DNA from: Candidatus Egerieimonas intestinavium
Lineage (GTDB): Bacteria; Bacillota; Clostridia; Lachnospirales; Lachnospiraceae
Reading direction: 5' to 3'
DNA: 64,000 nt
NCBI GenBank assembly: GCA_018711815.1
Contig: DVHU01000104.1
Span: forward strand, 90-64,089
The notes beneath the pieces were generated by a model. The model ran no database searches. It was given only the letters and a program-made list of their open reading frames with translations, and was not told the origin of the DNA. The translations under genes were made by a program, and so were the position numbers. Positions 8,993 through 18,487 of this stretch are shown in pieces. Within the stretch, counting starts at the first letter, position 1; the number at the start of each line of letters is the position of its first letter.

Positions 8993-9045
8993 GCGGGCGC
9001 TCTGCAGACCGGAAACGGACTGCGGGGCGCTTTCCCGTCTTTTTG
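8993..9045 (+). terminator. Rho-independent terminator after the hydrolase gene
   Basis: GC-rich hairpin with core GCAGACCG-GAAA-CGGACTGC (9004-9023) and flanking GCGC/GCGC pairing, followed by TCTTTTT (9039-9045). Confidence 0.6.
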
Positions 9046-9076: not shown

Positions 9077-9105
9077 TTGCTTTTGCAAAGCAAAAGTGAT
9101 ATTCT
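9077..9105 (+). promoter_or_regulatory. Candidate promoter of the SipW/TasA-like locus with embedded dyad
   Basis: TTGCTT (9077-9082), 17-nt spacer, TGaTATTCT extended -10 (9097-9105). The dyad GCTTT-N3-AAAGC (9079-9091) sits inside the spacer. Confidence 0.4.
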
Positions 9106-9300
9106 GTCTATATCGGAGAGCGGTTCCGCTTCTCCCGTATTCTTACGGCAGGTTCCTGCCAATTTTTCCAAAGAAAGACGACAATGTAGCGCAGCGGCGC
9201 CAAAGGAGAGTCCTTTTTTGCCGCTGGCCGGGAGGTGATGCCTATGGGGGCAGGCAGTGATGGCTGACTGTTTATTTTGCGTACGAAAAAGGAGAGATCA

Positions 9301-9942
9301 ATGAGAAAAAAGAAAATAGCAGTGTGGGCCGGGGCTGCGTCCCTGGCGGCAATCCTCTCGGCGGGGGGCGCCTGGGCGTATTTCACCGACCGGCAGGAGG
9401 CGGAGAACGTATTGACCATGGGCTCGGTGGAAATCCAGCTGGAGGAGCCCCAGTATCCCGGCAATGACACCGATGAGGTGCACAATATTTACCCGGGACA
9501 GACCATTCCCAAGGATCCCCAGGTGGCCAACACCGGGCAAAATCCTGCCTATGTGCGGCAGGAGCTCTGGATCCCCATCGGAAATGTGAAGGTGTTCCGG
9601 CCCCAGGGGGGCTACACCCAGCTCACCAGAGCGGAGCTGGTGACCTATGAGATTCAGGAGGGCTGGACGGAACAGACAGAACTGAAAAAGAAGGTGGAGA
9701 TAGACGGAAAAGCCTACATCCGTCATGTGTACAATTACGACACGGTGCTGGAGCCGGGAGAAAAAACCACGCCCCTTTTTACGAATATTCAGGTGATTAA
9801 CCTCATTGAGGGGGAGATTCCCGGGGGAACTCTGGAGCAAATTCCCATCAAGGCCCACGCGGTGCAGTCCCAGGGCTTTGGTAATGCGGCAGCGGCCTGG
9901 GAGGCCTACGGGGTTCAGAATGTTGAGAGCGGATGGGAGTGA
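9301..9942 (+). CDS. TasA/camelysin-like secreted protein with SipW-type signal peptide (paralogue 1)
   Basis: N-terminus MRKKKIAVWAGAASLAAILSAGGAWAYFTDRQEAENVLTMGSVEIQLEE matches the SipW-cognate signal pattern (AYFTD). Internal IYPGQTIPKDPQVANTGQNPAYVRQ and C-terminal AHAVQSQ motifs resemble TasA/camelysin. GGAGAG RBS. Confidence 0.75.
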   Translation: MRKKKIAVWAGAASLAAILSAGGAWAYFTDRQEAENVLTMGSVEIQLEEPQYPGNDTDEVHNIYPGQTIPKDPQVANTGQNPAYVRQELWIPIGNVKVFRPQGGYTQLTRAELVTYEIQEGWTEQTELKKKVEIDGKAYIRHVYNYDTVLEPGEKTTPLFTNIQVINLIEGEIPGGTLEQIPIKAHAVQSQGFGNAAAAWEAYGVQNVESGWE

Positions 9943-9948
9943 TAAGCC

Positions 9949-11121
9949 ATGAAGGGAAAAGGTGTGTGGCGGGCGCTGGCGGTATCCCTATGGCTGGCAG
10001 CCCTTCCCGGCGGCGTTTTCGCCCAGGAGAGCGAGCCGCTGACCATTGAGAACAGGATTGTCCTGGACAAGGTAGAGATCAGTCTCCAGGAATTTCAGAG
10101 GCAGGGGGAGGAACTGATCCCCTGGGAGAATCCGGGGCAGATCTACCCGGGGCAGGTGGTATCCAAGATTCCGGTGATTACCAACCTGGGGGCTCCCTGT
10201 TACCTGCGGGTGCGGGTCAGTTTCAGCGGCTCCGAGGAGCAGCTGAGGCAGTGGGACGAGAGCTGCCTGGTGGGGCTGGACGAGGGAGAATGGCAAGCCT
10301 TCCAGGAGGAGGATCAGCTGGTGTATTACCGGCGGGAGGCCTTGGGTTCAGGGGAAAAAACAGAGCTTTTCCAGGGACTGCGGATACCGGAGACCTGGGG
10401 AAATGAGATGGCGGATCAGGAGTTTGGCCTAAAGCTGCTGCCGGAGGCGGTGCAGTCCGCCAACTTTGTCCAGAATCTGGACAGCGAAAGCCCCTGGGGT
10501 GAGCTGGAGATCCAGGATTACCGGGAGCAAAACCGGGAGGAGGCTTACGTGGGACAGGAGGGTCCCTTTTTGATCAGCTGTTCTCCCCTGGCCATGGAGC
10601 TTTTGGCCTCCCCGGAAGGGCTGTTTTTCCTGAATTTTAATGAACGGATGCCCGGGGAGCTGCTGACTGGAGAGATCGAGCTCTCTAACCAGTGGGATCA
10701 GGCGGCGGAGCTTTTTTTAAGGCTGGAGGGCGGGGAAAATAAAAGCCCCCAGGCCCAGGAGCTCCAGCAGGCCATCGCCATGAAGCTTACCTTAACCGGG
10801 GAGGATGGACAGGAACAGCTGGTATATCAGGGGCCGCTGGTGCCCCAGGAGGGCCAGCGGCAGCTGAGCCTGGGACGATTTCCCCCGGGATATAAAGGGC
10901 TTCTGCGGATGGAGGCACAGATTCCTGCGGAATTAGATAATGCGTTTACCCTGACGGATGTAATCAGCCGGTGGATCTTCTGGACATCCCGGGAGGATCC
11001 GGTGATCTGGGTGCCAAAAACCGGGGATGAGGCGCCGGTGGGAATCCTTTTGGGAGTTAGTCTGGGCTCAGCCATCGCCCTGGGGACAGCGCTGACCCTG
11101 GGAAGGAGGAGAATTGGGTGA
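9949..11121 (+). CDS. TasA-like N-terminal domain protein with C-terminal VPKTG cell-wall sorting signal (paralogue 2)
   Basis: Signal peptide, then NRIVLDKVEISLQEF and IYPGQVVSKIPVITNLGAPCYLRVRV, which parallel paralogues 1 and 3. A second ~190-aa domain follows. The C-terminus is VPKTG (11011-11025) + hydrophobic helix + RRRIG. Confidence 0.65.
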   Translation: MKGKGVWRALAVSLWLAALPGGVFAQESEPLTIENRIVLDKVEISLQEFQRQGEELIPWENPGQIYPGQVVSKIPVITNLGAPCYLRVRVSFSGSEEQLRQWDESCLVGLDEGEWQAFQEEDQLVYYRREALGSGEKTELFQGLRIPETWGNEMADQEFGLKLLPEAVQSANFVQNLDSESPWGELEIQDYREQNREEAYVGQEGPFLISCSPLAMELLASPEGLFFLNFNERMPGELLTGEIELSNQWDQAAELFLRLEGGENKSPQAQELQQAIAMKLTLTGEDGQEQLVYQGPLVPQEGQRQLSLGRFPPGYKGLLRMEAQIPAELDNAFTLTDVISRWIFWTSREDPVIWVPKTGDEAPVGILLGVSLGSAIALGTALTLGRRRIG

Positions 11122-11807
11122 GAAGGAAGGGTGGCCGGGCTGCCGCAGCCTTTGGCGCCGGAGTGATTATGGTTTTTCTCTTGGCCCGGCTCTGGGGCCT
11201 GCAGGTCTACACGGTGATGAGCGGCAGTATGGAGCCGGAGATACCGGTGGGAAGCCTGGTCCTTGCCGGGAAAGTCCAGGGGACTTCCCTGAGGGAGGGC
11301 GACGTGATCGTCTATCAGAGGGGAGAGAGCAGGATTATCCACAGGATCAAGGAGATTCGGTGGGAGGAGGCTTCTGTGATCACCCAGGGGGACGCCAATG
11401 AAAGGGAGGATGCGGCTCCCGTGAACTTTGGACAGATACGGGGCCGGCTGCTGTGGACAGTTCCCTGGCTGGGCTACCCGGGTCTGATCCTCCGTCGAAC
11501 CCCGGGGCAGACCGTGATCTGGGGAGCCATAGGGCTGCTGGCCCTGGCCGCAGCGGTCCGGCTGTGGAGAAACAGAAGCAAGAGCAAAGGAGAGGAGGAG
11601 CTTACGAGTATTGAAGGAGAGAAAGGGAAAAGGGCCCTGGGCTATGATAGTTCTGGTTCTGGGAATCCTCTGCCTGCCGGCGGCGGGGCTCGCCTTCCTG
11701 ACCGCCAGGGAACAGGTGCTCAACCAGGCGGTTATGGGGGAAAATACCAGTACCGTAGAGGAAAAATTTCAGGAGCCGGAGCCCCTGGATCCGGAAAAGT
11801 CCCATGA
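11118..11807 (+). CDS. sipW: Signal peptidase I, archaeal/SipW type
   Basis: N-terminal TM, catalytic-Ser box VMSGSMEPEIPVGSLV, GDVIVY, ITQGDANEREDAAPV, C-terminal TM. The GTG start overlaps the upstream stop (GTGA). The last ~65 codons are low-complexity and overlap the next gene. Confidence 0.85.
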   Translation: MRRKGGRAAAAFGAGVIMVFLLARLWGLQVYTVMSGSMEPEIPVGSLVLAGKVQGTSLREGDVIVYQRGESRIIHRIKEIRWEEASVITQGDANEREDAAPVNFGQIRGRLLWTVPWLGYPGLILRRTPGQTVIWGAIGLLALAAAVRLWRNRSKSKGEEELTSIEGEKGKRALGYDSSGSGNPLPAGGGARLPDRQGTGAQPGGYGGKYQYRRGKISGAGAPGSGKVP

Positions 11808-12159
11808 ACTTCAGAAGGAGATTCGGGTGAAGAATCAGGAAAATGTGCCCTGCTATGTCCGGGTCAGAATTCTTCAGGGGGACACGGAAACCGCATGTAC
11901 CTGGAAGGATCTGGATGATAAGCTTTGGCAGAAGCGAGGGGAGTATTATTACTATACGCAGATCGTCAATTCCGGGGAGAGCACGAAGCCCCTGGCGGGA
12001 ACGCTGGTTATAGAGAAAACCGGAGAGGCGGCAGGGCAGGAGTTTCGCCTGTTGGTTTATGAAGAGTCCGTTCAGGCCTATAACCCGGAGTCGGGCGAGA
12101 ACTGGCAGTGGCTGGAGGCCTGGAAGTATTATGTGGGAACGGAAGGAGGAGTCGTTTGA
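11611..12159 (+). CDS. TasA/camelysin-like secreted protein (paralogue 3)
   Basis: KERKGKG n-region + hydrophobic core + AFLTAREQVLNQAVMGENTSTVEE (parallels AYFTD...). VPCYVRVRIL and VYEESVQAY motifs are shared with paralogues 1/2. TTG start with a GGAGG 12 nt upstream; ATG 11644 is the alternative. Confidence 0.65.
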   Translation: MKERKGKGPWAMIVLVLGILCLPAAGLAFLTAREQVLNQAVMGENTSTVEEKFQEPEPLDPEKSHELQKEIRVKNQENVPCYVRVRILQGDTETACTWKDLDDKLWQKRGEYYYYTQIVNSGESTKPLAGTLVIEKTGEAAGQEFRLLVYEESVQAYNPESGENWQWLEAWKYYVGTEGGVV

Positions 12160-14723
12160 TGAGAAAAAAGAGGAGACTGGCGGCCCTGGGAGCCTTGCTC
12201 CTTATGGCGGCAGGAGCCGCCTTCCCGGCCCGGGCCCAGCAGGCGGAGGGACTGCCCGGACTGGAAGAGCTCCCCAGCTATCAGCTGCCGGAGGGATTTG
12301 TGGTCAGCTGGGGAAAGGAGGAGGCAGATCCCAGCCAGAGGTACCGGCTATACCTCCCCAAGGGGGAGGGAGTCAGCTACCAGTACCAGCAGGAGCGGGT
12401 GCTGGAGGAGGATGAACAGGGGGTGACCCTGGAGTACGGCTATGGGGAGCAGGTGGAAATTTCCGCTCTTCCCCTGGAGGGCAGCGGCAAGCCCGACTTC
12501 TTTTTGCTGGAGGGGGAGACCTGCTGCCTTATGAGCACCAGCCCGGAGGGAATCTCCGCCCGAATGCCCGATGAGGATGTCCGGGCGGCGGCGGTCACAG
12601 CCAGCACCCTTAAGGCCAGGAGTTTCACGGAGGTGGAGGATGCCCAGGGAGATACCACCATCCACGTGACCGGAAAGGAGCCGGGAAATGATTACGTGGA
12701 CGCCTATGATTCCGCCGGGAATAAGCTGGCCACCATGAAGTTCTGGGTGGAAAACCTCCAGACCGGGGAGAAGATGTTTGCCTTTTGCCTGGAGCCCGAG
12801 GACTACACCCCTAAGTCCGGCGAGTGGTACGCCAGCGTAAAGCAGGCGGAAAACGCGGGATTAAGCCAGGAAACCATCCAACAGATGCGCAAGATCCTCT
12901 ACTATGGCTACGGAGGCCCTGGGAACCTGTTTGCGGACGACGCGGTGGGGCTGGTGACCACTCACCTGGCATTGGGATATGTCTACACGGGTAAGACCAA
13001 GGGATACCGGCTCTATGAGCCTTTTCTGCAGCAGCTGGAGAGTCTGGAGATGCCCTACGGGGAGGCCTCCCTCACCCAGGAGAGCTTAACCGGCAGGCTC
13101 AATGCAGAGGGGCGGCTGGAAACTCCGGTGACTACCCTGGAGGCCTTTGGAAGAAATCAGTTTTACTTCGATCTGCCCAGCCAGGTGACCATTCACCTGA
13201 CCACGGGCCAGTCCCAGACCGGAGGCCGGTGCATGGTGTCGGGAGGCCAATCCTTTTATTTTACTGCTCCCGCCGGGTGCCAGGAGTCCATTCAGGCGGA
13301 AGGTATCCGGGGGACATACCAGGAGCCGGAGCTGTATCTGGTTACCCCCAGGCATGCCACCAGACAGAGCCTGCTGGGGGTAGACTGGCAGGAGGGCTCC
13401 CAGAGTATCTCTCTGTCGGTCAACTGGGAGAATCCCCAGGGGGAGGTGCAGGTGGAGAAGGAAGACACCCAGGGGAACCCGCTGGCCGGCGCGGAATTTG
13501 CCCTTACGGCCAGAGAAGATATTTTGCTGCCCTCCGGGGAGATAAAGACGCCGGCAGGTACCCGGCTGGGAACGCTGACTACCGACGGGGAGGGCCGGGG
13601 AACCTTCACCGGATTGGATCCGGGCAGTTACCTGGTGACGGAGACAAAGCCTCCGGCGGGGTATCTGTCGGCGGAAGCCCAGGAGGTTACCTTGGCAGCC
13701 CCAGACAGCCTGAAGAAGACGCTGACCTTTGTAGATCAGGAAAATCAGGTGAAGCTGATTAAGCGGAAAAAGGGGACGGATACGCCCCTTAAAGGAGCGG
13801 TTTTTCAAGTCTGGAATGTGAAGGAGATGAAAAAATCCTCCTACACCACCGATGAGAAGGGGGAAATCCTGCTGCGCAAACTGGCTCCCGGAACTTATCA
13901 GTACCAGGAGGTATCTGCCCCCGCGGGCTATCTGGCGGATAAGACGGTTTACAGCTTTGTGATCGGTGAGGACGGGCGTCCCACGGACAGCAGCTATGAG
14001 AGGGGCCATGAGATCGCCAACGCCTGCACCCGGCTGGAGCTGCTGAAAGTGAATGGAAGCACCGGGCGGGCCCTGGAGGGGGCTTCCCTGCGGCTGACGG
14101 ATGCCTCCGGCAAGGAGGTGGCCCGCTGGGAGAGCAAAGAGGAGTCCCAGGTACTGGAGGCTCTGGAACCGGGAGAATATATTCTGGAGGAGCTTAAGGC
14201 CCCCGCGGGATATCTAAAAGCCCAGCCAGTGCGCTTTTCCTTGAAGGCGGAGGAGGGAACCCAGCGGGTAACCATGGAAAATTATCCCTACGGAAGCCTG
14301 ACGGTTTCCAAGACAATCCGGGCCTCGGAGATTATCTGGGCCCACGGCGATCCCACCTTCTTCTTTACGGTGGAGGGGAAGGACCTGAACGGTGAAAACC
14401 ATCGGTATCACGGCTATGTGCGCTTTACCCGGGAGGAGATCGACAGCTGCACGGACAGCCAGGGGATGGCTGCCTTGAGCTGGACCTTTGAGCATCTGCC
14501 TCCGGGGAAAGAGTACACGGTGACGGAAGAGCCGGTGAAGGACTACCGCTTTGTGTCTGTGTCCGGCTCCGGGGATGTGCGTATAGAGGGAGAGAAGGCC
14601 CTGGTGGATCTGACGAAAAAACCCACCGGACAGCAGGTCCTCTTCTGCAATGAGAAGACCCGGTACGATGGGTTTAAGCACAATGACTTGAAAGTCAACA
14701 CCTTCACCTGGAAAGAAAACTAG
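12159..14723 (+). CDS. Large secreted adhesin: thioester-domain-like region + three SpaA/prealbumin-type repeats + C-terminal beta domain, no sorting signal
   Basis: Sec signal MRKKRRLAALGALLLMAAGAAFPARA|QQ. TED-like FAFCLEPEDY ... ILYYGYGGPG ... VTTHLALGY. Three repeats of the form G-PL-GA-F-L ... TTD-G-G ... L-PG-Y-V-E-K-P-GY. Ends ...FTWKEN with no LPXTG-like motif or TM. ATG overlaps the upstream stop (TGATG). Confidence 0.75.
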   Translation: MRKKRRLAALGALLLMAAGAAFPARAQQAEGLPGLEELPSYQLPEGFVVSWGKEEADPSQRYRLYLPKGEGVSYQYQQERVLEEDEQGVTLEYGYGEQVEISALPLEGSGKPDFFLLEGETCCLMSTSPEGISARMPDEDVRAAAVTASTLKARSFTEVEDAQGDTTIHVTGKEPGNDYVDAYDSAGNKLATMKFWVENLQTGEKMFAFCLEPEDYTPKSGEWYASVKQAENAGLSQETIQQMRKILYYGYGGPGNLFADDAVGLVTTHLALGYVYTGKTKGYRLYEPFLQQLESLEMPYGEASLTQESLTGRLNAEGRLETPVTTLEAFGRNQFYFDLPSQVTIHLTTGQSQTGGRCMVSGGQSFYFTAPAGCQESIQAEGIRGTYQEPELYLVTPRHATRQSLLGVDWQEGSQSISLSVNWENPQGEVQVEKEDTQGNPLAGAEFALTAREDILLPSGEIKTPAGTRLGTLTTDGEGRGTFTGLDPGSYLVTETKPPAGYLSAEAQEVTLAAPDSLKKTLTFVDQENQVKLIKRKKGTDTPLKGAVFQVWNVKEMKKSSYTTDEKGEILLRKLAPGTYQYQEVSAPAGYLADKTVYSFVIGEDGRPTDSSYERGHEIANACTRLELLKVNGSTGRALEGASLRLTDASGKEVARWESKEESQVLEALEPGEYILEELKAPAGYLKAQPVRFSLKAEEGTQRVTMENYPYGSLTVSKTIRASEIIWAHGDPTFFFTVEGKDLNGENHRYHGYVRFTREEIDSCTDSQGMAALSWTFEHLPPGKEYTVTEEPVKDYRFVSVSGSGDVRIEGEKALVDLTKKPTGQQVLFCNEKTRYDGFKHNDLKVNTFTWKEN

Positions 14724-16606
14724 GAGGATTTTACCTTCTTCCAGAGGTCGTTGTAGGTGGCGTCCACCTGGGAGCCCAGGTAGGTGAAGGTCTCGCAGTT
14801 GGCCAGCTCCGCTTCATCGGGGAAGGCGATATGGCTGTCGCGGATATCCTCATCCTGGATCAGCTCCCGGGCGGCCTCGTTGGGGGTGGAGTAGGTAATA
14901 TACTCAAAATTCATCAGGGCAATGTCGGGGCGGCAGAGAAAGTTAATGAAGGCCTCGGCATTTTCCTGGTGGGGAGCGTTCTTGGGGATGACCCAGGAGT
15001 CAATCCAGACATTGGAACCCTCCTTAGGGATAACGTACTCCAAATCAGGATTTTCCCGCTGGGTGTAGATGGCCTCCCCAGAGTAAATCACCCCCAGGGC
15101 GGCCTCGCCGCTGATCATCTTATCCCGGACCTGGTCGATGACGTAAGCCTGAACCAGGGGCTTCTGGGTGATCAGCAGCTGCTGGGCATCGGTGAGCTCC
15201 TTAATGTTGGTGGAGTTCAGGGAGTGCCCCAGATATTTCAGGGCTACCCCGAAGGAATCCCGGACGGAGTCCTGCATGAGGATACTGTCCCGGTACTTGC
15301 TCTCCCAGAGAATTTCCCAGCTGTCCACAGGCTCGTCCACCATGGTTTTGTTGTAGAGAATTCCCACGGTTCCCCAGCAGTAAGGTACGGAGTAGAGATT
15401 TCCCGGATCAAACTGCTGGGAGGTGCGGTAGTACATATCTCCGATGTTGGAGGCGTTGGGGATATTGTCCCAGTTCAGGGGAGCCAGCAGGTCATTGTCA
15501 ATCATTTTGCTGATCATATAGTCGGAGGGACAGACCACGTCGTAGGCCACGGCTCCGGCCTTGATTTTCGGATACATCATCTCGTTGGTCTCAAATTCCT
15601 CATAGACCACCTGGATTCCGGTTTCCTCCTCGAAGAGGTCCAACACCTCCGGGTCGATGTACTCACCCCAGTTATAGACGATCACCTGATTGTCGGAATC
15701 CAGCCTGGTCTTGCTGCCGTAATAGAAGCCTCCCACCAGAATTACCGCGGCCAGAGCGGCGGGGATCACCCGCCCGAAAATGAGCCGCCTCCGCCGGGGG
15801 GACAGAAGGTTTTTTTTGCCGTTGCCTGAGCCCTGCAAAAGCTTTTCCTCCGAGGGGGACAGGTTGACGATCAAAAGCAGCGCCAGCACCGTCACGAACA
15901 TCAACGTAGACAGGGCGTACATTTCCGGCTTGATTCCCTTTCTCACCTCCGAGTAGATCTTAGTGGATAGGGTGTCCACCCCGGGCCCCTTGGTGAAGTA
16001 GGTGATGATGAAGTCATCCAGGGACAGGGTGAAGGCCATGAGAAATCCCGAGAGGACTCCCGGCAGAATATCCGGGAATACCACCAGGAAGAAAGCCCTT
16101 ATGGGGGAGGCACCCAGATCCAGAGCCGCCTCGTAGGTGCTTTTGTTTACCTGCTTCAGCTTCGGCATCACGCTGAGGATCACATAGGGGATGCAGAAGG
16201 TAATGTGAGCCAGGAGGATGGTAGTAAAGCCCAGCGTCATCCGGCAGGCCAGAAACAAAAGCATCAGGGAGATGCCGATGACGATCTCACCGTTTAGGAT
16301 GGGAACATTGTTCAGTCCGTTAAAGAAGGCCCGGGAGCGCCGGCGCATGTGATTGATGCCCAGAGCCCCCATGGTTCCGATTACGGTAGCGATCAGAGCG
16401 GCCAGAACCGCGATCAGCAGCGTGTTGTAGAGAGCCTGCATAATCTCTGTATTCTGGAATAAGGACACATACCACTGGCCGGTGAATCCGCCCCACTTGG
16501 CCCGGGTCTTGCTGGAGTTAAAGGATAACACCAGCAGGGTCACAATGGGGGCGTACAAAAACAGAAAGATGAGGCCCATATAAAAGCGTTGGATAAATTT
16601 TTTCAA
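14720..16606 (-). CDS. Spermidine/putrescine ABC transporter, fused permease (PotC-like) and periplasmic-type binding protein (PotD-like)
   Basis: 628 aa. The N-terminal ~260 aa is a 6-TM permease with an EAA-like loop (EAALDLGASPIRAFF). After one more TM comes a ~330-aa PotD-like solute-binding domain. Confidence 0.85.
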   Translation of the reverse strand: MKKFIQRFYMGLIFLFLYAPIVTLLVLSFNSSKTRAKWGGFTGQWYVSLFQNTEIMQALYNTLLIAVLAALIATVIGTMGALGINHMRRRSRAFFNGLNNVPILNGEIVIGISLMLLFLACRMTLGFTTILLAHITFCIPYVILSVMPKLKQVNKSTYEAALDLGASPIRAFFLVVFPDILPGVLSGFLMAFTLSLDDFIITYFTKGPGVDTLSTKIYSEVRKGIKPEMYALSTLMFVTVLALLLIVNLSPSEEKLLQGSGNGKKNLLSPRRRRLIFGRVIPAALAAVILVGGFYYGSKTRLDSDNQVIVYNWGEYIDPEVLDLFEEETGIQVVYEEFETNEMMYPKIKAGAVAYDVVCPSDYMISKMIDNDLLAPLNWDNIPNASNIGDMYYRTSQQFDPGNLYSVPYCWGTVGILYNKTMVDEPVDSWEILWESKYRDSILMQDSVRDSFGVALKYLGHSLNSTNIKELTDAQQLLITQKPLVQAYVIDQVRDKMISGEAALGVIYSGEAIYTQRENPDLEYVIPKEGSNVWIDSWVIPKNAPHQENAEAFINFLCRPDIALMNFEYITYSTPNEAARELIQDEDIRDSHIAFPDEAELANCETFTYLGSQVDATYNDLWKKVKSS

Positions 16607-17424
16607 AACAGAGAGCCCTCCCCGTCTTTATCGTATTTGGCAGTGACTGCCATGGAAAAGAGGATAAACAGCATCAGAACCAGGGAGAGCCCGGATCCCA
16701 CATGATAATTGTTGGTCTGCTGAAATTCCTGCTCGATGACGTTTCCGATCAGCAAAATCTTGCTGCCTCCCAGCATACTGGAGATAACGAAGGTAGTCAG
16801 GGAGGGGATAAATACCATGGTGATGCCGCTGATAATTCCCGGCAGACTCAAGGGAATCAGAATCCGGGTCAGGGTCTGGAGAGGGTTAGCCCCCAGATCT
16901 CTGGCAGCGTTGACCACATCCTTATCAATTTTAATCATCACATTATAGATGGGCAGCACCATGAAGGGAAGAAAATTGTAAACCATGCCCAGGATAATGG
17001 CCCCCGGGGTGTTGATGATTTCCAGAGCCGGCAGGTGCAGGAAGGAGAGCACGCTGTTGATGACTCCGTTTTTCTCCAAAAGCGTCTGCCAGGCCAGTGT
17101 ACGCAGCAGAAAATTCATCCACATGGGCAGGATGAAAATCAGCACGATAAAGCTGGTTTGATTTACCGATTTCTGGGCGAGGATCATGGCCAGGGGGTAG
17201 GCCAGAATCAGGCAGATGGCCGTGCTCACCACCGAGAGCAGCAGGGCCAGCGCCAGGGCCTTCATGTTTTCCGGGCTGGAAATTTCCGCCAGGTTAGAGA
17301 GGGTAAAACCGCCGGTTTCATTGTCGGTGAAGGCGTAGTATATCACAATCAGCAGGGGGATGATGGTAAAACCTACCGCCCACACCGTAAAGGGAGCGGC
17401 CAAAAAACGACTTTTATTCTTCAA
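16603..17424 (-). CDS. potB: Spermidine/putrescine ABC transporter permease
   Basis: 273-aa 6-TM permease with the motif [20 protein letters not shown]. Overlaps its neighbours by 4 and 11 nt. Confidence 0.85.
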
Positions 17425-18487
17425 CGCTTACCGCCTCCTCATGGACAGATTCCGGCTTGTTCATGATCTGAATGTCAAAGGGATCAACCCAGATGCCCAC
17501 TTCCTCCCCCACGGGCACCATATCGGTGCTGTGTACCAGCCAGGTGTATCCTCCGGCCTCCACATCCATCTCATAGTGGACGCCCCGGAAAATCAGATTA
17601 GTCACCCGGCCGGTGATGATTCCTTTTTTGGGCTTTACTAAGTCAATATCCTCCGGGCGGATCACCACGTCCACCGGTTTGTTTCTGCCGAAGCCAGTGT
17701 CCACGCAGGGGAACTTGGCCCCCAGAATTTTCACCAGCCTGTCCTCCAGCATAACCCCGTCGATGATGTTGCTGTCCCCGATGAAATCTGCCACAAAGGC
17801 GTTCTGGGGCTCGTTGTAAATATCCTCCGGGGTTCCGATCTGCTGGATATACCCTTGATTCATAACCACGATGGTGTCCGACATGGTCAGGGCTTCCTCC
17901 TGATCGTGGGTCACGTAGATAAAGGTGATGCCCAGCTCATTTTTCAGGCGGATCAATTCATACTGCATGTCCTGGCGCAATTTCAGATCCAGGGCCCCCA
18001 GGGGCTCGTCCAGCAGAAGCACCTTAGGCTCATTGACGATGGCCCGGGCGATGGCGATTCTCTGCTGCTGGCCGCCGGAGAGGGAGGCGGGGGATCGGTG
18101 CTCATAGCCCTCCAGATTTACCAGCTTTAGAGCATACTTGATTTTATCTTTGATATACTCCTGGGACTTTCCCTTGATTTTCAGGCCGAAGGCAATATTT
18201 TCCGCAATGGACATGTGGGTAAACAGGGCGTATTTCTGAAATACGGTGTTCAGCTGACGTTTGTTGGGGGCCAGGTTGGTGATGTCCTGGCCGTCAAAGA
18301 TAACCCGCCCGGAGTCCGGGCTCTCAAAGCCCCCGATGATCCGCAGGGTTGTGGTCTTCCCGCAGCCGCTGGGGCCCAGAAGCGTGAGAAACTCGTTTTC
18401 CCGGATATACAGGTTTAAATTATCCAAGACCCTTTGGCCCTCATAGGACTTGGTAATATTTTCCAGATTAATTAATTTATAGCTCAT
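17414..18487 (-). CDS. potA: Spermidine/putrescine ABC transporter ATPase
   Basis: Walker [10 protein letters not shown], signature LSGGQQQR, Walker B LLLDEP, C-terminal TOBE-like domain. Confidence 0.9.

Follow-up and report, generated by a model that had tools for sequence, protein, structure and literature searches.

A five-gene locus from a gut bacterium is very probably a SipW-dependent fibre module of the TasA/BsaA type that includes a sortase-anchored paralogue. The locus lies at 9077-14723 of a 64-kb window, that is, the whole stretch of DNA analysed, which comes from a chicken-gut Lachnospiraceae metagenome-assembled genome, Candidatus Egerieimonas intestinavium. The open reading frames (ORFs) called in the window gave five co-directional genes on the + strand, in the order A-B-C(sipW)-D-E: A (9301-9942, 213 amino acids), B (9949-11121, 390 amino acids), C or sipW (11118-11807, 229 amino acids), D (11611-12159, 182 amino acids, with a TTG start), and E (12159-14723, 854 amino acids). 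A is a candidate shaft subunit of the TasA/BsaA superfamily, D a candidate short TasA/BsaA-like subunit (a second shaft component or an adapter), and B a candidate wall-anchored base subunit. By its sequence, E looks like a tip adhesin in which a C-terminal donor strand has taken the place of the sorting signal. B is 100% identical to a hypothetical protein of that genome. The complete arrangement, a fibre of the form E-(A/D)n-B-cell wall, was judged somewhat more probable than not.

The tight packing of the genes, as described in a sequence-only reading of this stretch, was exact when the junctions were read base by base. The TGA of A (9940-9942) is separated by 6 nucleotides from the ATG of B at 9949, B and sipW share GTGA at 11118-11121, and D and E share TGATG at 12157-12161. 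Moreover, the 3' end of sipW and the start of D overlap by 197 nucleotides (11611-11807) in different frames. These start and stop overlaps imply that all five genes are co-translated. The same reading had counted one paralogue with a sorting signal, an 854-amino-acid thioester domain (TED)/SpaA protein as the last gene and no sortase gene, which the motif scan of the window and Pfam bore out, and its statement that a TapA-like gene is missing agreed with our finding that none of the five proteins matched a TapA model.

The common ancestry proposed for the products starting at 9301, 9949 and 11611 was evident in BLASTP, with E-values of 1e-13 for B against D (over about 200 amino acids), 7e-9 for A against B, and 0.004 for A against D. 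On this similarity, A, B and D are true paralogues. A matched Pfam PF12389 (Peptidase_M73) with 38 bits (gathering threshold 22.5) and the SipW-cognate signal model TIGR04088 with 32 bits (cutoff 19), so that the camelysin/M73 and SipW-signal assignment made earlier held for A. B and D had no direct match to PF12389, and were tied to the family through paralogy and matches to the A-family hidden Markov model (HMM). The core motif that had been ascribed to all three proteins was present in D in part (K...V.N...PCYVRVR), and its IYPGQ part is missing there. Among 48 A homologues, 44 matched PF12389, 44 matched TIGR04088, and 47 matched the BsaA-family model TIGR04090 at E ≤ 1e-3, with a best E-value of 1.4e-13, close to the 6.7e-12 of A itself. 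As judged from these profile scores, the A family is related to the curated BsaA subfamily (TIGR04090) but not part of it.

A has a signal peptide of the SipW type with a predicted cleavage between GGAWA and YFTD. The signal peptide of D is predicted to be cleaved between AGLA and FLTAREQVLNQAVMG, and by eye it is similar to the SipW type (GLA followed by FLTA), while those of B and E look ordinary. The AlphaFold 2 (AF2) model of A is a beta-sandwich with a mean predicted local distance difference test score (pLDDT) of 80 and a predicted template-modelling score of 0.71. D-type paralogues are kept beside A and B in the Blautia loci described below.

The putative donor strand of A (9379-9423, + strand; Y27-G41, YFTDRQEAENVLTMG) contains the invariant Asn36. 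The invariant columns of the 48 A homologues include A26, Y27, T29, N36, E49, and K71. We then aligned 260 TasA-like paralogues, from our own ORF calls in 79 loci, to the A-family HMM. Among the sequences aligned at each position, the Asn was present in 209/224 (93%), the Glu in 220/227 (97%), and the Lys in 204/242 (84%). All three paralogues of the window carry the triad, as N36/E49/K71 in A, as N35/E48/K73 in B, and by inspection in D. The consensus of the donor strands of TasA-like subunits was AYLTDTDTVTNTFTVG. In the AF2 monomer of A, residues 28-39, directly after the predicted SipW cleavage site, were disordered (pLDDT <50).

These features resemble those of BsaA of Clostridium perfringens, in which residues 28-38 form the donor strand and are likewise disordered in monomer models (PMC11580942). 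By mutagenesis, Kivimaki et al. found that BsaA N35 in the donor strand, and E56 and K74 in the acceptor, are required for oligomers resistant to sodium dodecyl sulfate, and proposed a "donor-strand-exchange-and-lock" isopeptide (PMC11580942). BsaA V33 and F37 flank N35 and face the core (PMC11580942), and the family consensus T-V-T-N-T-F-T, or V-x-N-x-F, matched V33/N35/F37 when set against this published description. Judged from that description, the putative equivalence of N36/E49/K71 to BsaA N35/E56/K74 appears well supported. The triad thus fits a donor strand with an isopeptide lock of the kind proposed for C. perfringens BsaA.

The signal peptidase in the middle of the operon was also as proposed. 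C scored 83.6 bits against the archaeal-type signal peptidase I model TIGR02228 (cutoff 51.85) and has the SGSMEP Ser box and an IIHRI His box. Judged by this profile and these boxes, C is a SipW-like signal peptidase I of the archaeal/endoplasmic reticulum type. It fell below the cutoff of the Bacillus SipW equivalog NF046067 (68 vs 190 bits). After its second transmembrane segment, C has a low-complexity C-terminal tail of about 80 amino acids, which is encoded over the start of D. In a relative (L001) whose SipW is 41% identical, both the long overlap and the tail are present, which shows that they do not come from a sequencing frameshift. Translational coupling is one possibility for the role of the overlap.

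In B, a signal peptide is followed by a TasA-like N-domain that carries the triad, a second beta-sandwich domain, which we named Bc, and a sorting signal. Its AF2 model (pLDDT 71) showed a pair of beta domains with a linker of low confidence between them, and a C-terminal helix that corresponds to the transmembrane segment of the sorting signal. This signal (11011-11118, + strand) comprises V355-P-K-T-G-D, a mostly hydrophobic segment of 25 residues, and RRRIG. T358, G359, and D360 were invariant across seven B homologues, and the score of B against TIGR01167 was 14.4 bits, slightly under the cutoff of 15.9. In the motif scan of all ORFs, B was the sole credible sorting-signal protein in the 64-kb window. 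Among 60 anchored paralogues from the surveyed loci, the motifs were xPKTG, xVKTG, IPATG, and xAQTG/QAQTG, followed by D or E. The motif class of B resembles the (S/P)PxTG substrates of Clostridioides difficile SrtB (PMC4155245).

The Bc domain (10564-10998, + strand; residues 206-350 of B) belongs to a beta-sandwich family that usually precedes a sorting signal. An exhaustive search (E ≤ 1e-3) gave 195 representative clusters of this family. Bc stood behind a TasA-like domain in 99 proteins, 83 of which had a sorting signal, and it was the only domain after the signal peptide in 48 proteins, 29 of them with a sorting signal. The donor Asn was kept in 25/60 anchored paralogues, compared with 184/201 free ones. 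Both this difference and the existence of Bc-only anchors, which have no donor strand, fit an anchor that is a terminal acceptor. Some Bc-only anchors are short, of about 205-270 amino acids, and consist of a signal peptide, Bc, and a sorting signal (P0136, P0137, P0164, and others, and the short anchors of loci such as L054, L059, and L069). They sit at the ends of multi-paralogue TasA-like clusters and share the motifs MPGD...N, Y.G.L, VP.EL.N.Y, and W.F. In hhalign, Bc and the A-family core were related with a probability of 19% over a 35-column PGx...N motif, which was insufficient to call Bc TasA-like. A word-indexed search had returned seven homologues of B, as if it were a rare protein; this impression was overturned by the profile searches of the loci and the exhaustive Bc search.

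E has an ordinary signal peptide, an N-domain without assignment, a TED, three SpaA/CnaB-like domains, a last immunoglobulin-like (Ig) domain, and a C-terminal tail. Pfam scores were 39.7 bits for TED_2, 186 bits for SpaA in three stretches, and 25 bits for DUF7601. In the last Ig domain, the first strand contains a Lys and the last strand an Asn, at the positions that form isopeptide bonds in the Ig domains of sortase pili. There is no sorting signal at the C-terminus of E. Homologues of E hold the same operon position in other loci. The TED itself (12723-13001, residues 189-281) has the expected Cys motif, FAFCLEP. Its usual Gln partner motif was not found; the best candidate is TTHLALGY, and the His at the Gln position puts thioester formation in E in doubt.

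The tail of E (14658-14720, + strand; T834-N854, TRYDGFKHNDLKVNTFTWKEN) lies beyond the last Ig strand, VLFCNEK, and carries the pattern F839-x7-N847-x-F849. These approximately 20 residues (FKHNDLKVNTFTW) resemble an N-terminal donor strand, including its Asn (N847). Similar tails were found on the large proteins of other clusters, YDRYSHTDVIRNIIPVLP in Blautia, KWFSDTDVVKNTFKVGS in Acetanaerobacterium, and KWL......V.N.F in Oscillospiraceae. The large cluster proteins have 600-2700 amino acids, with TED or vWA heads on SpaA/CnaB stalks, and almost never a sorting signal. They are otherwise divergent, and the tail, which follows the last Ig strand (...F.N.K), is common to those with either kind of head.

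We built an HMM from 181 distinct donor strands and ran it over every ORF of the loci (1192 in number, with 396,665 residues in total). The top five matches outside the TasA-like proteins all lay 2-9 residues from the C-terminus of large cluster proteins, the best of them with 14.8 bits and an independent E-value of 0.0018. When the last 35 residues of each ORF were scored, the in-cluster large proteins had a median of -0.5 bits compared with -3.5 bits for the other ORFs (Mann-Whitney p=2.6e-15). A strict regular expression for the tail matched 31/70 in-cluster large proteins and 47/862 other ORFs (Fisher p=6e-18), and no protein had both this match and a sorting signal. The tail also co-varied with the strands of its own locus. 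Loci with AWL... donor strands have KWL... tails with an equal spacing from W to N, and the Blautia E tails are closest to the YFSDTLKVTNHI strand of their own B paralogue. From these comparisons, the tail of E probably supplies a first donor strand in the manner of TapA, and its specific role as a strand donor to the fibre has, in our estimate, slightly better than an even chance of being correct. An adhesin with a C-terminal donor strand looks undescribed in the literature searched. The clearest tail of this kind (KWFSDTDVVKNTFKVGS) was seen in a cultured strain, Acetanaerobacterium elongatum CGMCC 1.5012. The protein (L059:5602-9372, 1256 amino acids) combines a vWA domain with an Ig domain like that of the tip pilin GBS104 and has no sorting signal. 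It lies in a cluster of sipW, TasA-like, short-anchor, and sortase genes, is likely an analogue of C. perfringens BsaC, and would suit experimental work well.

The module was also found in other gut Clostridia. One genome per species was scanned with an alignment of 12 A-family sequences, and 73 loci were returned from Blautia, other Lachnospiraceae, Oscillospiraceae, Hominibacterium, Acetanaerobacterium, and others. The counts rest on our own simple ORF calling and HMM classification, and with many truncated contigs they are lower bounds or approximations. SipW was present in 56/73 loci, at least two TasA-like paralogues in 65/73 (median 3, maximum 10), and a TasA-like or Bc-type protein with a C-terminal sorting signal in 52/73. 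These three features occurred together in 42/73 loci. An adjacent sortase, confirmed by Pfam, was found in 3/73 loci; a further match to the sortase expression T[LVIM]xTC in one locus (L023) was a false positive that by sequence looks like an acyl-CoA dehydrogenase.

Two main gene orders were observed, sipW-A-D-B-E in Blautia and A-(D)-B-sipW-(D)-E, the type of the window. The five-gene order of the window recurs, amid other chromosomal neighbours, in a relative whose B shares 55% identity. In another, with a B of 27% identity, the core A-B-sipW-D is kept and giant CnaB/SpaA proteins flank it. The cultured strain Blautia caecimuris DSM 29492 (L015) carries sipW-A-D-B-E. Some loci of Oscillospiraceae/Ruminococcus (L066, L057, and L063) have 6-10 tandem TasA-like paralogues with one giant protein and one short anchor, and this number of paralogues is far above that of any characterised TasA system.

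The fibre that we infer from this module would be assembled as follows. SipW would process A and probably D, as known for the family, by cutting off their special signal peptides, and thereby free the N-terminal donor strand. The donor strand of each subunit would insert into the open beta-sandwich of its neighbour, which would give a polymer with either A or D as the major subunit, and the triad of donor Asn and acceptor Glu and Lys would probably lock the junctions by an intermolecular isopeptide bond. B, a subunit with an extra domain and the (V)PKTGD signal, would accept the last strand and end the fibre at its base, where a sortase encoded elsewhere in the genome would link it to peptidoglycan. 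The tail of E would most likely plug the groove left empty in the first subunit, at the distal end, so that E would stand at the fibre tip and act as an initiator like TapA. E would donate a strand but has no groove of its own; it would fill the sole vacant distal groove and thus both nucleate and cap the fibre. In its boldest form, the proposal is a hitherto undescribed hybrid pilus of gut Clostridia (Blautia, other Lachnospiraceae, Oscillospiraceae, and relatives), in which a tip adhesin of the sortase-pilus type has given up its LPXTG signal for a C-terminal donor strand with an Asn open to isopeptide locking. This strand would nucleate and cap a TasA/BsaA-like shaft that is terminated by a sortase-linked paralogue. 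Such an organelle would combine strand exchange, spontaneous isopeptide bonds, and sortase transpeptidation, and we put this forward tentatively, as a view with somewhat less than an even chance.

Several observations weigh against this reading. The PF12389 match of A spans only profile positions 3-74 of 196, at the N-terminal end, and both A (45.6 bits, E-value 6.7e-12) and D (33.3 bits, E=4e-8) stay under the TIGR04090 cutoff of 60. B has no Pfam match, and its TasA-like nature rests on paralogy and the A-family profile. Foldseek searches of the PDB with the AF2 models of A and B did not place TasA (jelly-roll reference structures 5OF1, 5OF2, and 8AUR) in the top 50, and returned only generic beta-sandwiches such as cohesin, CBM3, and integrin with template-modelling scores of about 0.1-0.37. 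The PDB sequence search with A and the A-family profile (E ≤ 1 and E ≤ 10) gave no matches. The fold searches were thus uninformative, and the case for membership in the TasA superfamily comes from the profile matches, which cover the N-terminal third, the SipW-type signal, and the context. The spacing from N to E is 13 residues here and 21 in BsaA. No credible sortase ORF was found in the motif scan of all ORFs of the 64-kb window, in which the one match to T[LVIM]xTC was an antisense artefact. The tail of the window E scored 4.2 bits against the donor HMM, which is modest alone and gains its weight from the homologues, and the tail score was at least 0 bits in 22/43 loci with a large protein, many of them on truncated contigs. 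The likeness of the Blautia E tails to the strand of B is not explained by a simple linear model. Finally, BsaC occurs free in the supernatant, which speaks against obligatory covalent attachment.

E might instead stand apart from the same fibre, which could be with or without the B anchor, as a thioester adhesin that is secreted on its own or held loosely at the wall, with its tail as the final strand of the last Ig domain or as a retention or processing signal. This is unlikely in our view, although the window tail scores low, BsaC was recovered as a free 70-kDa band in C. perfringens supernatants, and the DUF7601 match of E is sub-threshold, which leaves the domain boundary uncertain. The tail, however, follows VLFCNEK, the canonical last strand of the CnaB type, at the place where pilins bear LPXTG. 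It is kept on unrelated heads (TED and vWA) in proteins of varied lengths, only within SipW/TasA clusters; it is like the donor strand in sequence, spacing, and locus-specific variants, and is exclusive with sorting signals. A final strand of the Ig domain is therefore the less likely assignment, as VLFCNEK precedes the tail and the tail tracks the locus-specific variants of the donor strand. A socket with the reverse polarity was also considered, in which B donates its strand, the A/D fibre grows outward, as has been proposed for TapA-TasA, and the tail of E plugs the groove of B, so that E would be shown at the wall and not at the tip. The window B does retain a full donor strand with Asn35, the Blautia E tail is closest to the N-terminal strand of B, and TapA, a donor of the first strand, is thought to be cell-associated. 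But many anchors are Bc-only without a donor strand, and anchored paralogues often have no donor Asn, so that the anchor of those loci can solely accept. In the assembly models of the archaeal Tafi fibres and of BsaA, too, the anchor is an acceptor and growth takes place at the base, and we consider the reverse polarity quite improbable.

A released biofilm-matrix fibre of the TasA or strain-13 BsaA type, with B and E as separate co-regulated surface proteins, would agree with the nature of TasA and BsaA as matrix proteins and with the BsaA oligomers of HN13, which are membrane-associated, not wall-linked, and shed. A TasA-like paralogue with a sorting signal nevertheless belongs to the conserved core in 52 of the 73 loci, and the overlaps of the five genes imply their co-translation, which makes this explanation very unlikely. 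The SpaA/CnaB domains of E, its weak matches to pilin models, and the Pfam name Peptidase_M73 could also suggest a conventional sortase-polymerised pilus of the SpaA type or secreted metalloproteases of the camelysin type. There is, however, no class C or other credible sortase ORF in the 64 kb, E has no sorting signal, and the M73 peptidase label is regarded as a misidentification (PMC11580942). We consider either of these scarcely conceivable. The wall-anchored fibre with E at its tip thus remained our preferred reading.

The surroundings of the operon were also analysed. Its 5' leader (9077-9300, + strand, about 200 nucleotides) is 3' of the terminator of the upstream gene, a hairpin at 9022-9038 with a T-run. 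The leader begins with a perfect palindromic hairpin with a stem of 10 base pairs (TTGCTTTTGCAAAGCAAAAG, 9077-9099), and a second hairpin with a T-run at 9147-9160 could be an attenuator or operator. When the whole window was compared with Rfam, and the leader again with a relaxed threshold, chance-level matches only and thus no known riboswitch came up. Downstream, a convergent ABC transporter operon of the polyamine type occupies the - strand at 14720-18487. Its last gene (14720-16606, 628 amino acids) is an apparent fusion of a permease and a domain like periplasmic binding proteins. It shares 4 nucleotides with E at the stop codon of the latter, which leaves no space for a terminator between the convergent operons. 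Two long antisense ORFs on the - strand, at 10827-11723 (298 amino acids, opposite B and sipW) and at 13086-14009 (307 amino acids, opposite E), are most likely artefacts of high G+C. The G+C content of the module stretch is about 59% compared with about 52% in the flanks, and this step might be a sign of horizontal acquisition.

What is known of TasA-type fibres comes mainly from Bacillus and C. perfringens, where they are released as biofilm matrix. The present locus and its dozens of relatives in abundant gut commensals suggest that TasA chemistry also builds wall-anchored, adhesin-tipped pili. If the role of the tail is as proposed, it would explain how large adhesins without a sorting signal are mounted on Gram-positive cells, what takes the place of TapA outside Bacillus, and how the order of subunits is encoded. 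It would also give a search rule for such adhesins, namely a large protein encoded beside sipW that has an Ig stalk, no LPXTG, and [YFW]-x(7-10)-N-x-[FIL] at its C-terminal end. The hypothesis can be tested directly in a cultured organism, since the module is present in B. caecimuris DSM 29492, and a self-locking pair of strand and groove is a possible protein-ligation tool.

The sequence-only reading had gone as far as a tethered TasA-type fibre with the VPKTG protein as base, the small paralogues as shaft, and the large adhesin displayed. That picture held up, and the conservation of the module and the tail of E strengthen it; the Foldseek searches, in which TasA was not retrieved, add no support. 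The reading had further supposed that the architecture is uncharacterised, but comparable gene neighbourhoods, and a BsaB with LPXTG, can be found in earlier publications. Given the published bsa, Tafi, and AbpX loci, this claim of novelty was overstated, and the locus belongs to a recognised, barely studied kind. The Lachnospiraceae/Blautia family, the Bc anchor domain, and the C-terminal donor-strand mimic were not found described in the literature searched.

Among known systems, the chaperone-usher pili (Fim/Pap) are alike in being ordered heteropolymers whose subunits join by donor-strand exchange, from a terminator at the base up to an adhesin at the tip, although the systems are unrelated. 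A chaperone and an usher are lacking here, and FimH accepts a strand where E is proposed to donate one. The sortase pili (SpaA/RrgA/GBS104) share with E the TED, or vWA in its relatives, on CnaB/SpaA Ig domains, as well as a wall-linked base. The present locus differs in having no pilus sortase, an E without LPXTG, and a TasA-like shaft, and strand insertion instead of transpeptidation is proposed for it.

In Bacillus subtilis, TapA gives the first donor strand to TasA (Bohning 2022, PMC9674648; Roske 2023, PMC10151520). The tapA-sipW-tasA system and the proposed fibre have in common SipW processing, N-terminal donor-strand exchange, and an accessory donor-like peptide that gives the first strand. 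There is no TapA here, however, and the mimic of the strand is at the C-terminus of an 854-amino-acid adhesin and not at the N-terminus of a small protein. The locus also has three paralogues, a sortase signal, and the N-E-K triad, while TasA is said to be without the triad (PMC11580942).

The sipW-bsaA-bsaB-bsaC operon of C. perfringens (Obana 2020, PMC7395162; Kivimaki 2025, preprint, PMC11580942) encodes several TasA-like paralogues and a large vWA protein (PMC11580942). In most strains an LPXTG-bearing BsaB lies beside srtB and was speculated to be the wall anchor of the BsaA fibre, for which the assembly model places growth at the base (PMC11580942). Operons that combine BsaA/TasA genes with genes for LPxTG and SpaA proteins, signal peptidases, and sortases have also been noted (PMC11580942). 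The likeness to our locus extends to SipW, several TasA-like paralogues, a large adhesin as the last gene (the vWA protein BsaC there and the TED protein here), the triad of donor Asn and acceptor Glu/Lys, and one LPXTG paralogue in most strains. The differences are the order A-B-sipW-D-E, the lack of an adjacent sortase and of a two-component system, the scores of A and D under the TIGR04090 cutoff, an anchor with Bc, and a TED/SpaA adhesin. A C-terminal donor-like tail has not been reported for BsaC.

The archaeal Tafi fibres have a tip (TafC), followed by TafE, TafA, and the anchor TafF, which accepts a strand, with TafD as the peptidase (PMC11821415, PMC12337348). They are an experimentally supported precedent for an order of tip, adapter, shaft, and anchor (PMC11821415). 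The AbpX preprint described bacterial loci of the TasA superfamily with LPXTG anchors, for which AlphaFold 3 predicted strand exchange with the fibril subunit (10.64898/2026.01.04.697558). The tip of Tafi uses an N-terminal pilin-like domain and a strand, its anchor is a transmembrane protein and no sortase substrate, and secretion is by twin-arginine translocation, while AbpX differs in a peptidase with 10 transmembrane helices. Common to these systems and to the proposed fibre are a tip protein, an adapter or minor subunit, a shaft, an anchor that accepts the last strand, and a dedicated peptidase. The window contains a gene set of this Tafi/AbpX-like type (E, A, D, B, and sipW), and this set recurs in the related loci.

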